Assembly (NCBI RefSeq): GCF_003334255.1 | Contig: NZ_QOWU01000005.1 | Source: Escherichia coli | GTDB lineage: Bacteria; Pseudomonadota; Gammaproteobacteria; Enterobacterales; Enterobacteriaceae | DNA: 64,000 bases | Direction: 5' to 3' (one strand) | Part shown: one piece after another, positions 10,482-21,592 of the stretch | How the letters are laid out: each line of letters begins with the position of its first letter | Numbering within the stretch: position 1 is the stretch's first letter | The notes under the pieces: generated by a model | The model's database searches: none | Seen by the model: the letters and a program-made list of their open reading frames with translations, nothing else | Told to the model about the DNA's origin: nothing | Position numbers and translations under genes: made by a program

Positions 10482-10537
10482 TGTGAAATCATCCTCTCCC
10501 ATGAGGGAGAGGATGAGTGCCTGATGCGTTTCGTTTT

Positions 10538-11812
10538 TCAGGAGATATTCAATGCCTTCTCAGTCACTGGCGCAGAACTGAATCCTGGCTGCTCAACGCG
10601 AATGAATGCGCAAAGGACAAAGGCCAATAGATACAATGCTGTATAGGCAATGACCACACCGATAGTGCTAAACCACGGTAATAACACCACGGCAATTGCC
10701 GGAGCCAGGAAGTTAGACATACCCGCAGAGAGGTTGTAAACCGAGATTGCAGCACCTTTGTGTTTTGGTTCCAGTGCCGGGAAGACAGCGGCCATCGGCA
10801 CAAATGCAGCAACAAAAGTTCCCAGAGCAATCGCCGGAATCATTGCCATCCAGTAGTTGTGACCAAAGTATTGCGGCATGTAGTAAAACGCTAAACTTGA
10901 TGCTGCCATCCCGAGGCAACCAAACCAGCGAATAACACGCATCCAGCCCATTTTTTCTGCCACAATCCCCCAAAAAATATTAGAGAAAATAGTGGTAAAG
11001 AAAAATGCCGCCCAGACCTGCAACCATTCAGAGGTGGTGAATCCCAGTTCATCCACAAACATCATTGGCATAATGACCGCAAAACCGAATAACGATAAGG
11101 TATTTATAATGCGCACAATACTGGAGAGAAAAATATTGCGGTTGGTATAAAGTAAAGTTACTGCCCGACTTAATTCTGCAAACTTCTCACGGGGAGTTAA
11201 ATTATGCATATGTCCAGGCGTTTTAACATGACGCAAGGAGATCATGGCAATGACACCGCCAGCAAAGCAGAACGCCAGTGCCAGCCATAAGGTTCCCATT
11301 TCACCCATAATCGGTATCGTAAAACTGGGAATATAACTGCCAGCAACACCGATCCCTACTGAATATACCGCCCAGTACCAACCCAGAGCAGAACTGGAAT
11401 TTTCGCTACGCACGTTATGAATAATAACGACGATAAATGAGTAGAGAAATAGCGGATACGCTAAACCACGAATCCCGTAAAACAGCAGGATTAACCCATA
11501 GTTTGCCTGTCCTAATCCAAAGACCAGAAACAGAACATGGAATACGCACCATAGGACAAAACCAATCAGCATGGTTTTTTGCGGCGTGATGATTTCCGCT
11601 ACTACCCCAGAAACCCAGGCGGAAAGGGCAGCCGCCAGGCCGTAGAGCGTAAAGGCAAAAGAGGCTTCCGCAGGTGTGAAGCCTAACGATTTAATATAGT
11701 GCGATAAGAATGCGAGTTCGAAACCATCACCAGTCATAAATACTGCGATGGCGATATATCCCCATATCAGATGCAGTGGCAAACCCAACCACTGTTTATT
11801 ATTTCTGGACAT
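10538..11812 (-). CDS. rbtT: MFS pentitol (ribitol) transporter
   Basis: 424-aa MFS permease, last gene of rbtD-rbtK-rbtT; long identical peptide stretches shared with the dalT product. Confidence 0.8.
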   Translation of the reverse strand: MSRNNKQWLGLPLHLIWGYIAIAVFMTGDGFELAFLSHYIKSLGFTPAEASFAFTLYGLAAALSAWVSGVVAEIITPQKTMLIGFVLWCVFHVLFLVFGLGQANYGLILLFYGIRGLAYPLFLYSFIVVIIHNVRSENSSSALGWYWAVYSVGIGVAGSYIPSFTIPIMGEMGTLWLALAFCFAGGVIAMISLRHVKTPGHMHNLTPREKFAELSRAVTLLYTNRNIFLSSIVRIINTLSLFGFAVIMPMMFVDELGFTTSEWLQVWAAFFFTTIFSNIFWGIVAEKMGWMRVIRWFGCLGMAASSLAFYYMPQYFGHNYWMAMIPAIALGTFVAAFVPMAAVFPALEPKHKGAAISVYNLSAGMSNFLAPAIAVVLLPWFSTIGVVIAYTALYLLAFVLCAFIRVEQPGFSSAPVTEKALNIS

Positions 11813-11913
11813 ATAAACCTCGTTTTTAGGGTGCAGATGAATGCACTCCGGGATATTACCGGAGTGAGTCGTTATTAGTGATTGCCTGAAAACAGCGTCA
11901 GGCGGCTGGTTAA

Positions 11914-13518
11914 TTAGTCTCTGAGTAATTTTGCAGTATGCTGCAACTGCTTATAGGCCTCATATCGACGATGATGAAGAGATTGATAGCGTTCTTGCGG
12001 ATAATAATATTTATCCACATGGGTGAATTGTTGCATCGCTTCGCCAACAGAAGGTGCAATATTTCCGGCGACAGCACCAAGAATGGCCGAGCCTAATAAA
12101 ACCGGTTCGCAGCATTGCGTGGTAATGACCGGAATACCGCAGGTATCTGCCAGAATTTGTCGTACCAGTGGATGCTGCCCGGCACCGCCGCTAATAACGA
12201 TATTTTTACTCACTACTCCCTGCGCTGTTTGAGCGTCGAGAATTTGGCGCAGACCATAACCAATTCCGCATAATCCAGCGATATACAAGGCGAGTAAATT
12301 ATCCAGATCTCGCTCCATACCCAGGCCACAAATTACCGCTCTGGCATGAGGATCTGCGAAGGGGGCGCGATTTCCGAGAAATTCCGGCACCACGTGTAGC
12401 CCTTTCGCCAGGGCGACAGCATCTGATGGTTGCGCCGTTTTTTCGAGGATTCGATCAGCAAGCCAGACGGGGAGGGGCTGATTCACACGTTGTGCCATTT
12501 CGCGAGCTTCTTCAACAGCCGGATGGAAATCAAGTAGCTGGTCAATAGCTGCTCCCGCAGCACTTTGCCCGCCTTCAACTAACCACAGACCTGGAACCAT
12601 CGCACTGTAATACGGCCCCCAGACACCCGGTACAAACGAGGGAGAAGTGGTAGATGCCATGGTGCATGAAGAAGTGCCGAAAACATACGCGAGATTGTTC
12701 AGCGCTCCACCTTCTACGCCAACCGTACCGATGCCACCAGCGTGAGCATCAATTAACCCTACAGCGACAGGTGTGCCGGGGAGTAATCCCATCTCTGCCG
12801 CGGCTTGTGCTGTTAAACCATTTCCACAAGGTGTTCCGGGAGAAACAATATGATGACCAATGCGAATAAAATCTTCATCCGCTAACTCTGCAAGGCCAAT
12901 GGTGCGGAAATAATCTGGATCCCAGCGATTTTCATGTGCCAGCCACGTCCATTTACAGGTAACAGTGCATACTGAACGCGCTAAATCACCGGTAGCCCGC
13001 CAGGTCAGAAAATCGGCCAGATCGAAAAATTGTCCGGCACGTTCGTAGATCTCTGGCATATTTTCTTTCAGCCAGAGAATTTTCGGTGTTTCCATTTCAG
13101 GCGAAATTTTACCACCGACGTAGTTCAGCACCGGATGGTGAGTGGCATTGATTCGCTCTGCTTGTTCGGTGGCGCGGTGATCCATCCACACAATGATATT
13201 TTGCTTTGCATCTCCTTCCGGGCTGACAGGCAATGGATCACCGTTTTTATCCAGTACCACCAGAGAACAGGTGGCATCAAAACCGATGCCTGCCACACTT
13301 TGTGCACAAACGTCTGCCAGAGTGAGCGCATTACGAATACATGAACAGACCGCCTGCCAGATCTCCTGGCTGGACTGTTCCACGCGGCTTCCGCTGCGCC
13401 GCGTAGTCGTGATTTTTTCTGTGGCATGGGATAGCAGAGATCCGTTGAGATCAAAAATCCCGGCGCGGACACTGCCTGATCCCACATCAACACCAATAAC
13501 GGTTTTGGTTATTGTCAT
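11914..13518 (-). CDS. rbtK: D-ribulokinase (FGGY family)
   Basis: FGGY kinase motifs (VIGVDVGSGSVRAGIF); ATG at 13518 preferred over the GTG at 13542, which would overlap rbtD. Confidence 0.8.
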   Translation of the reverse strand: MTITKTVIGVDVGSGSVRAGIFDLNGSLLSHATEKITTTRRSGSRVEQSSQEIWQAVCSCIRNALTLADVCAQSVAGIGFDATCSLVVLDKNGDPLPVSPEGDAKQNIIVWMDHRATEQAERINATHHPVLNYVGGKISPEMETPKILWLKENMPEIYERAGQFFDLADFLTWRATGDLARSVCTVTCKWTWLAHENRWDPDYFRTIGLAELADEDFIRIGHHIVSPGTPCGNGLTAQAAAEMGLLPGTPVAVGLIDAHAGGIGTVGVEGGALNNLAYVFGTSSCTMASTTSPSFVPGVWGPYYSAMVPGLWLVEGGQSAAGAAIDQLLDFHPAVEEAREMAQRVNQPLPVWLADRILEKTAQPSDAVALAKGLHVVPEFLGNRAPFADPHARAVICGLGMERDLDNLLALYIAGLCGIGYGLRQILDAQTAQGVVSKNIVISGGAGQHPLVRQILADTCGIPVITTQCCEPVLLGSAILGAVAGNIAPSVGEAMQQFTHVDKYYYPQERYQSLHHRRYEAYKQLQHTAKLLRD

Positions 13519-13528
13519 GATTGCGCCC

Positions 13529-20818: not shown

Positions 20819-20862
20819 TGACGACAAGCCTGGTGTGGTGCCAGGCTTTATTGCGAGGAACA

Positions 20863-21516
20863 ATGTTTAATTGTAAAGCAGTCATTTTTGATATGGACGG
20901 CGTCATCATTGATTCGGAAGGGTTATGGCGTGAGGCACAAAAGGGAGCACTGGCAAGGTGGGGCGCATGTGTCAGTGACGAAGAGTGTATAAGACTGACT
21001 AAAGGTAAAAGGCTGGATGAGATTGCCCAAACCTGGTGTGAATATTGTCATTTACACATTGAACCCGCACTGTTGGAAAGTGAGATTCGCCGCCTGATCA
21101 CTACGTTGATTGCCGGGACGGGCGAAGCGATGCCAGGCGTTCAGGACGTGTTATTTTTTTTGCGCCGGAGTGGCTATCAACTGGCGCTGGCAACCTCTTC
21201 ATCTTACCAGGTGATCGATGCTGTACTGACAAAACTCAATATTCAGCATTATTTTTCGGTGATTTGTAGTGCTGATGACGAAAAGCATGGGAAACCCCAT
21301 CCGGCAGTTTATCTTTCTGCACTGCGAGAATTGCAACTGTCTGCTGCAGATTGTTTGGTTATAGAGGACAGCGTGAGTGGTTTTCAGGCAGCACAGGCGG
21401 CAGGAATAAACACCATTGTGGTATCAGAAGATGCCCAACAAACCTGCTTTAATGCGGCGAGTGCAAGATATTTATCGATGAATGAATTACTGGCAGCGTT
21501 AGCCGTAGCTGCGTAA
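20863..21516 (+). CDS. HAD-superfamily hydrolase (beta-phosphoglucomutase-like sugar-phosphate phosphatase)
   Basis: DxDG motif (AVIFDMDGVIIDSE) near N-terminus; GAGGAA SD before ATG 20863; an alternative ATG at 20818 overlaps the dalT stop (ATGA). Confidence 0.7.
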   Translation: MFNCKAVIFDMDGVIIDSEGLWREAQKGALARWGACVSDEECIRLTKGKRLDEIAQTWCEYCHLHIEPALLESEIRRLITTLIAGTGEAMPGVQDVLFFLRRSGYQLALATSSSYQVIDAVLTKLNIQHYFSVICSADDEKHGKPHPAVYLSALRELQLSAADCLVIEDSVSGFQAAQAAGINTIVVSEDAQQTCFNAASARYLSMNELLAALAVAA

Positions 21517-21529
21517 CAAAAAAGGGTGA

Positions 21530-21592
21530 GCGCAGAAGATCCCAGGGATGATGCCGGTCTGCTAATCCTGCTTCTGCGCTTGCTTTTATTTA
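21530..21592. terminator. Putative terminator between the HAD gene and convergent yegS
   Basis: Inverted repeat gcgcagaag...cttctgcgc followed by T-rich ttgcttttattt. Confidence 0.4.

Follow-up and report, generated by a model that had tools for sequence, protein, structure and literature searches.

A ribitol/D-arabitol catabolic island closely matching that of E. coli C between fbaB and yegS in an Escherichia coli genome

The 64,000-nucleotide stretch of Escherichia coli DNA analysed here (contig NZ_QOWU01000005.1 of assembly GCF_003334255.1; henceforth the window) carries, between the flanking core genes fbaB (9429–10481, + strand) and yegS (21590–22489, – strand), a segment of 11,107 bp (10483–21589) which is almost certainly the E. 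coli C-type pentitol (ribitol/D-arabitol) catabolic island, consisting of two operons in back-to-back arrangement, each with divergent regulation. Comparison with the E. coli C chromosome gave two mismatches in 11,107 nt (99.98% identity), and with so few differences this is the classic pentitol island. All nine island proteins bear the same RefSeq accessions as in E. coli C, the nine genes are full-length, intact ORFs, and their coordinates agree with the RefSeq annotation of a genome that is 100% identical. The gene order is rbtT-rbtK-rbtD (– strand), rbtR (+), dalR (–) and dalD-dalK-dalT (+), exactly the eight-gene layout of the original prediction, which had missed a ninth island gene specifying a HAD-family phosphatase.

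This island has long been known, and it is intact and ordinary here. The ribitol-arabitol genes of E. coli C were reportedly described by Reiner in 1975 and by Link and Reiner in 1982 and 1983, and the rbt and dal operons of Klebsiella pneumoniae and K. aerogenes by Heuel et al. in 1998 and Wu et al. in 1985. Citations of the 1983 paper appear in PMC6805351 and PMC2806823, and those of the Klebsiella work in PMC12307932 and PMC5156309. The rtl-atl (rbt-dal) genes of E. coli C occupy the same segment, specify the same nine proteins, replace gat at the same fbaB-yegS position and include imperfect inverted repeats of ~1.3 kb; apart from the flanking yegS protein, which is a different allele, there is essentially no difference. 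The present segment possesses the complete gene set of the E. coli C/Klebsiella cluster (ribitol dehydrogenase, D-ribulokinase, D-arabinitol dehydrogenase, D-xylulokinase, two polyol MFS transporters and two repressors) in the same mirror-image order, the regulators converging in the middle and a transporter standing at either end, as in K. pneumoniae, Raoultella and Enterobacter cloacae. Its value as a discovery is small: it is a textbook accessory catabolic island, illustrating how one chromosomal site can hold different gene cassettes. In practice it can serve as a strain marker, the C-type lineages being pentitol-positive and galactitol-negative.

The leftmost gene, rbtT (10538–11812, –), specifies a polyol, presumably ribitol, MFS transporter, in keeping with its annotation and with a score of 514.7 bits against the RbtT/DalT/CsbX family (TIGR00897; cut-off 375). 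It is followed by rbtK (11914–13518, –), for an FGGY pentulose kinase (TIGR01315; 919.7 bits, cut-off 408.7) to which one source gives the name D-ribulokinase, and rbtD (13529–14278, –), for a short-chain dehydrogenase which is near-identical over its full length (486 bits) to a protein of solved structure, “Ribitol 2-dehydrogenase” (PDB 9x6o). On the dal side are dalD (16628–17995, +), a D-arabinitol 4-dehydrogenase (NF043014 equivalog; 755.7 bits, cut-off 600), dalK (18009–19472, +), a D-xylulokinase (TIGR01312, XylB; 640.9 bits, cut-off 380), and dalT (19541–20818, +), a second polyol transporter, presumably for D-arabitol (TIGR00897; 513.9 bits). RbtT, DalT, RbtK, DalD and DalK thus all exceed curated family cut-offs. 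From established knowledge of such pathways we infer that RbtT would take up ribitol, RbtD oxidize it to D-ribulose and RbtK convert this to D-ribulose 5-phosphate, while DalT would take up D-arabitol, DalD oxidize it to D-xylulose and DalK yield D-xylulose 5-phosphate, both products entering the pentose phosphate pathway.

The dal side ends with a gene (20863–21516, +) for a HAD-IA hydrolase resembling the sugar/polyol-phosphate phosphatase HxpB (NF008087; 171.6 bits, under the cut-off of 191). The translation displays DxDG and the remaining HAD motifs. The gene belongs to the island, and it comes after dalT in each of the enterobacterial loci for which sequence beyond dalT was covered.

That the island might be a silent relic, its genes looking intact yet unexpressed or insufficient for growth on pentitols, is brought to mind by decayed copies in other E. 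coli: an internal stop in rbtD of O55:H7 strain DEC5D, a frameshifted rbtK with truncated rbtD and rbtR in EC12, and an IS1 deletion in EM20-18-50. We consider this highly improbable, as the nine ORFs are of full length, their products do not differ from the proteins of E. coli C, which is pentitol-positive, and the motifs of the control regions are intact. According to PMC6805351, which cites Link & Reiner 1983, E. coli C uses ribitol and D-arabitol.

Each operon is divergently transcribed from the gene for its presumed repressor. The two regulator genes, rbtR (14440–15471, +) and dalR (15474–16415, –), converge, their stops (15471 and 15474) being separated by 2 bp as predicted. RbtR, at ~340 amino acids, has an N-terminal LacI helix-turn-helix and a periplasmic-binding-protein-like core (PF00356, PF00532, PF13407); its best NCBIfam relatives are fructose and sucrose repressors, with scores under their cut-offs. 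The rbtR gene adjoins rbtD-rbtK in all loci for which flanking sequence was covered, across the γ- and α-proteobacteria, and its GTG start is kept in all 12 enterobacterial loci aligned. The LacI-type assignment, put forward originally as a point for checking, is confirmed on sequence grounds by the Pfam domains and by the conservation of both the synteny and a palindromic site, and RbtR is a genuine LacI-family protein predicted to repress the rbt operon. The name “RbtR” was absent as a regulator name from the database sources for its top homologs. The Klebsiella RbtR of 1985 was reportedly 270 amino acids in length, and the alignment to the Klebsiella genomic ortholog covers residues 1–338.

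The palindromic site lies in the rbtD/rbtR divergent control region (14279–14439). A near-invariant palindrome, GCTCAATCGATGAAGC, is found ~75 nt upstream of the rbtR start, appearing in the present island as CTGCTCAATCGATGAAGCAG at 14364–14383. Its 16-nt core has zero to two mismatches in 81 of 82 loci, in which it is situated ~71–122 (mostly ~75) nt upstream of rbtR; the rbtR-rbtD-rbtK module and palindrome are conserved together in 81/82. LacI-family operators are palindromes with CG at their centre, close to the promoter that they control, and this site fits such a description; it is a well-supported candidate operator, at which RbtR probably acts. DalR possesses an N-terminal helix-turn-helix and the C-terminal sugar-binding domain PF04198 (174.7 bits) of the SorC family, with scores under cut-off for its relatives DeoR (B. 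subtilis) and LsrR, and would be the repressor of the dal operon. In the dalR/dalD divergent control region (16416–16627) are the conserved repeats TGGTCATTTGT at 16520 and TGGTCAATTGT at 16541, which may have regulatory roles, and a conserved block at 16556–16575 (TGTGATCT...GCTCTTA) which could be a CRP half-site. A simple σ70 scan gave fewer promoter-like sites than shuffled sequence, and none in either control region. The inducers of the Klebsiella pentitol operons are D-ribulose and D-arabitol.

The original prediction that this arrangement is known from Klebsiella as well as E. coli C proved correct. In K. pneumoniae ATCC 13883, for which the cluster rather than its flanks was compared, gene order and orientation are identical, the two transporters and the HAD gene included. 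Protein identity is 73–88% for the eight rbt/dal proteins (RbtD 88%, DalT 86%, DalD 85%, DalK 84%, DalR 83%, RbtR 76%, RbtK 73%) and 61% for the HAD protein, with just 71–74% at the DNA level. The Klebsiella rbtD-rbtR spacer differs in being ~75 nt longer, and in it the palindrome occurs a second time in inverted orientation. Raoultella has the same mirror-image cluster and order, likewise between fbaB and yegS.

E. coli has three alternative haplotypes at the fbaB-yegS locus, this island among them. Homology to K-12 stops at 10482 and restarts at 21590, in agreement with the limits originally drawn (10482–21589), and, as was also predicted, K-12 carries gatYZABCD-gatR in this slot, unrelated genes for a PTS-based hexitol pathway which are likewise limited by the fbaB and yegS stop codons. 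This use of the site as an alternative to gat is the “genotypic exclusion” of the E. coli C island. When the two sites were compared, no gat remnants were found beside the island and no island remnants beside gat in K-12; in K-12 the ~81 bp between gatR and yegS are unrelated in sequence and contain an inverted repeat. Of 5,426 complete E. coli genomes, ~5,106 have the gat operon at this site and ~303 (~5.6%) the C-type island; gat is missing from 320, a separate count which can be compared with the ~303 only as a total. The third haplotype is the pentitol allele of O55:H7-type strains, such as CB9615 (PMC2806823), found in 27 genomes and examined in DEC5D. It shares rbtK-rbtD, rbtR, dalR and dalD-dalK-dalT-HAD beside yegS, with ~82% DNA identity to the present island; it lacks rbtT and has gatYZABCD-gatR in the interval from fbaB to rbtK, and there is consequently no inverted repeat. 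Its rbt genes are often decayed.

Long inverted repeats flanking most of an island present in merely ~5.6% of E. coli genomes might suggest a composite mobile element, past or present, whose 1.26-kb transposon-like ends moved it into the gat site. We rejected this reading and find it scarcely credible. Inspection of the ORFs and junctions revealed no transposase, integrase or target-site duplication at the island, and variable insertion sites were not found either: Raoultella, Superficieibacter and others carry the cluster at this fbaB-yegS site as well. Each repeat is a functional transporter gene rather than a terminal repeat, the right arm stops short of the HAD gene, the true boundaries are the stop codons of fbaB and yegS, and many genera have a single transporter and hence no repeat. 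The flanks diverge in the manner of recombination, divergence from K-12 being raised in the final ~0.5 kb of fbaB (94–96% identity over the last ~480 nt vs 98–100% further upstream) and in ~0.2 kb of yegS. Exchange of the island most likely took place through homologous recombination within its flanking genes rather than by transposition.

The transporter genes do form the predicted inverted repeat of about 1.3 kb. Its arms (10580–11835, extending 23 nt beyond the rbtT start codon into the leader, and 19518–20773) are 1256 nt each and 78% complementary, far beyond chance. The genes share 77–78% DNA and 85% protein identity, and the long identical peptide stretches reported earlier are indeed present. 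Recent gene conversion was rejected as their source, third-position identity being only 0.5–0.63 where the protein blocks are 100% identical; from such low values we infer that purifying selection explains them. Judged from its sequence, the repeat is old in the present island. Synonymous sites are near saturation.

It had further been suggested that the repeat is a substrate for inversion or recombination, and this held for other genera, not for the present copy. Raoultella and E. cloacae do show, in their aligned arms, arm-to-arm mosaic gene conversion: the Raoultella arms are 95% identical in mosaic blocks with exact runs of 182–263 nt, and in E. cloacae M-7 blocks of 97–99% identity alternate with blocks of 69–83%. 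The Klebsiella arms (84% nt identity) are also more alike than those of E. coli, and in a tree the Klebsiella/Raoultella rbtT copies group inside their own clade, apart from the E. coli and E. cloacae copies. The Raoultella and E. cloacae mosaics and the tree favour a repeat able to invert the inter-arm segment or to drive ongoing gene conversion, which for the present strain we regard as very unlikely: the arms agree at only 77% of positions, 51% of third codon positions match where the residues are identical, no exact match exceeds 26 nt, and there is no high-identity block. An internal query matched 304 genomes at ≥99% identity; less one IS1 deletion (EM20-18-50), an exception which is not an inversion, ~303 were expected to keep the fbaB-rbtT-rbtK junction, and 302 do, leaving one genome unaccounted for. 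No inversion polymorphism was seen in this junction comparison of the ~303 island-bearing E. coli genomes.

The comparative data draw the locus clearly, with three E. coli haplotypes, a one-transporter form widespread in relatives and arm-to-arm conversion in some genera. A wider proposal, taken jointly, we advance tentatively and with some doubt. E. coli keeps two pentitol alleles that differ by ~18% in DNA, gat being excluded by the first and present together with the second; the HAD gene may be an integral fifth dal gene relieving pentitol-/pentulose-phosphate stress; and rbtT may have arisen from dalT by inverted duplication, with later conversion in some genera. These three side results may be absent from the literature. 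An example of the stress would be xylitol 5-phosphate made by DalK. As for rbtT, the duplicate would have been added to an ancestral one-transporter cluster and homogenised by conversion in some genera (Raoultella, E. cloacae), a process that the C-type island of E. coli would long have escaped.

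The interval between fbaB (9429-10481, +) and yegS (21590-22489, -) contains, according to the ORF list and to RefSeq's annotation of a genome that matches at 100% identity over 12 kb, rbtT (10538-11812, -), rbtK (11914-13518, -), rbtD (13529-14278, -), rbtR (14440-15471, +), dalR (15474-16415, -), dalD (16628-17995, +), dalK (18009-19472, +), dalT (19541-20818, +) and a gene for a HAD-IA hydrolase (20863-21516, +). All genes named in the original prediction are present, its sole omission being the HAD gene, although the coordinates given there take it in; the convergence of rbtR and dalR, with stop codons 2 bp apart, was also borne out. 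Homology to K-12 MG1655 stops one base past the fbaB stop (10482) and restarts at the yegS stop (21590), so that the variable segment is 10483-21589 (11,107 bp). Its K-12 counterpart in the alignment is the galactitol operon, gatYZABCD-gatR (with IS3E). Identity to K-12 is 94–96% over the last ca. 480 nt of fbaB and 96% over the first 200 nt of yegS, and rises to 98–100% farther outward. This raised flank divergence fits a cassette swap through homologous recombination within fbaB and yegS; neither the ORF list nor the boundary alignment to K-12 revealed a transposase, integrase or target duplication at the island.

Aligned to the E. coli C chromosome (NZ_CP020543.1), the 11,107-nt segment shows two mismatches and no gaps, and all nine island proteins carry the same RefSeq accessions in both. 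Klebsiella pneumoniae ATCC 13883 also carries all nine genes, with order and orientation unchanged; its eight rbt/dal proteins are 73–88% identical to those of the island and its HAD protein 61%, with 71–74% identity at the DNA level. Because of this near-identity to E. coli C and the 73–88% protein identities to K. pneumoniae, the low similarity to known pentitol enzymes that was to count against the original prediction was not found. Link and Reiner reportedly observed imperfect inverted repeats of ca. 1.4 kb around the E. coli C genes in 1982, and Heuel et al. are said to have recognised such repeats in 1998 as the two transporter genes. Pentitol utilization by E. coli C, and its exclusion relationship with gat, have been described (Link and Reiner 1983, as cited in PMC6805351 and PMC2806823). 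The island is real, intact and already well known, and was accurately predicted.

Five of the proteins exceed the curated NCBIfam cut-offs: RbtT and DalT (TIGR00897, ca. 514 bits versus 375), RbtK (FGGY pentulose kinase, 920 versus 409), DalD (D-arabinitol 4-dehydrogenase equivalog, 756 versus 600) and DalK (XylB, 641 versus 380). RbtD aligns end-to-end with a solved "Ribitol 2-dehydrogenase" (PDB 9x6o, 486 bits), and DalR contains a SorC-type sugar-binding domain. Several database entries name the product of dalR "cytochrome C biogenesis protein CcdA", an annotation error which has spread through public records. In protein clustering at 90% identity DalK (xylulokinase, 487 aa) and DalT (425 aa) share one cluster, presumably an artefact of a fused or read-through gene call. 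The HAD-IA protein is HxpB-like, scoring just under the NCBIfam model cut-off (171.6 bits versus 191), and its translation shows DxDG and the other HAD motifs. In all enterobacterial pentitol loci that reach far enough, its gene lies directly 3' of the dal-side transporter; outside Escherichia its identity is 48–65%, much below that of the catabolic enzymes. A plausible role within the dal operon is the clearing of dead-end polyol phosphates.

Ribitol would be taken up by RbtT, oxidized to D-ribulose by RbtD and phosphorylated to D-ribulose 5-phosphate by RbtK; D-arabitol would enter through DalT and be converted to D-xylulose by DalD and to D-xylulose 5-phosphate by DalK, both products feeding the pentose phosphate pathway. 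A regulator transcribed divergently from each operon would keep it repressed in the absence of inducer. In Klebsiella, rbt is induced by D-ribulose and dal by D-arabitol.

The LacI-type family of the rbt regulator, which the original prediction marked for checking, is confirmed by domains, synteny and a conserved palindrome. RbtR carries a LacI HTH and a periplasmic-binding domain. A LacI-type gene is divergent from rbtD-rbtK in every locus with the upstream flank covered, among them loci of Providencia, Yersinia, Xenorhabdus and many Rhizobiaceae (61–67% protein identity). Alignment of the rbtD-rbtR spacer from 12 enterobacterial loci revealed one invariant block, TGCTCAATCGAT..AGC, present in the window as the 20-bp palindrome CTGCTCAATCGATGAAGCAG (14364-14383). 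In 81 of 82 loci its 16-nt core, with 0–2 mismatches, precedes the rbtR start by 71–122 nt (mostly about 75); the remaining locus is truncated at that point. Many loci have a second copy, placed 22 nt upstream or, in Klebsiella/Raoultella, 29 nt downstream of the first. The palindrome has the form expected of a LacI-family operator and is a candidate site for RbtR, which, judged from this conserved form, is the predicted cognate regulator of the rbt genes. In Sinorhizobium meliloti an RbtR is listed as regulator of ribitol genes (PMC4560400). The dalR-dalD spacer contains conserved TGGTCAWTTGT repeats and a TGTGATCT...GCTCTTA block, which may represent DalR and CRP sites.

Among 5,426 complete E. 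coli genomes, 304 carry the island interior at ≥99% identity, 27 a divergent pentitol allele (ca. 82% DNA identity) and 5,106 gat. At the left end, 302 genomes have an unbroken fbaB-rbtT-rbtK junction; one genome outside these (EM20-18-50, locus L086, 5683-7501) has an IS1-mediated deletion that takes out most of dalK and everything up to and including the 5' end of rbtT, retaining dalT-HAD. IS1 or IS2 insertions were also noted in the rbtT-rbtK region of other genomes (H71, H72). In strain O55:H7 DEC5D (L003, 5665-21562) the order is fbaB-gatYZABCD-gatR-rbtK-rbtD-rbtR-dalR-dalD-dalK-dalT-HAD-yegS; the divergent allele lacks rbtT, directly follows gatR and coexists with gat. Its rbt genes are often decayed, with an internal stop in rbtD of DEC5D and further decay of the rbt side in EC12 (L004). 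These arrangements therefore define three haplotypes: gat only, pentitol only (as in the window and E. coli C), and gat together with a pentitol cluster that has one transporter; this third haplotype matches the minority "both" class mentioned in PMC2806823.

An RbtR query against one genome per species yielded 80 loci, whose genes were placed by means of the island proteins. In Raoultella, Superficieibacter and one further enterobacterium the cluster is flanked by fbaB and yegS; in K. oxytoca, K. spallanzanii, R. terrigena, Leclercia and Enterobacter sp. JUb54 it adjoins fbaB. Two transporters are found in C-type E. coli, K. pneumoniae, two Raoultella species, E. cloacae M-7 and a decayed Leclercia copy; in most other genera the only transporter is on the dal side, and rbtK is abutted by fbaB or other DNA. 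The rbtR-rbtD-rbtK module and the same upstream palindrome recur in alpha-proteobacteria (Rhizobium, Shinella, Ensifer and others; loci L029, L036 and L040-L084), where identities to E. coli (RbtR 61–67%, RbtD 73–79%), high for the phylogenetic distance, suggest horizontal spread.

The transporter genes form the predicted inverted repeat, with arms at 10580-11835 and 19518-20773 (1256 nt, 78% complementary), and the quoted identical peptide runs were found in RbtT and DalT, which are 85% identical. Its proposed role as a recombination substrate holds for relatives but not for the window copy. The arms of two Raoultella genomes share 95% DNA identity, 94% third-position identity at identical residues and exact runs of up to 182–263 nt, interrupted by short divergent patches. 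Those of E. cloacae M-7 (partial sequence) share 89% and 81%, with a longest run of 104 nt and blocks of 97–99% alternating with 69–83%. Such mosaics of near-identical and diverged blocks (L008, 5003-6277/14159-15433; L012; L005) clearly point to gene conversion between the inverted arms. In the protein tree Klebsiella/Raoultella RbtT copies fall inside the Klebsiella/Raoultella clade, apart from other RbtT copies, and those of E. coli and E. cloacae group together; arm-to-arm conversion, as the mosaics and tree placement show, thus takes place in the family. K. pneumoniae (partial sequence) shows 84% and 67%, a 36-nt run and 74–90% per 30 codons. The window arms share 77% and 51%, with a longest run of 26 nt and at most 87% identity in any block of 30 codons, and show no mosaic pattern. 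Recent exchange as the source of their identical peptide runs was rejected in favor of purifying selection. RecA recombination depends on sequence identity, and on this basis the C-type arms are probably too diverged to recombine efficiently; no inversion was seen in ca. 303 E. coli genomes with the C-type island.

Elsewhere, at 23371-23396, beside the CyaR sRNA gene (23382-23467, -), K-12 has ca. 600 bp of additional DNA, the cryptic P2 remnant PR-X with ogrK and yegZ; the window retains CyaR and lacks the remnant. Rfam matches include a TPP riboswitch (thiM leader, 2561-2657, +), two Sib antitoxin RNAs (36827-37304, -) and a JUMPstart element (53118-53156, +).
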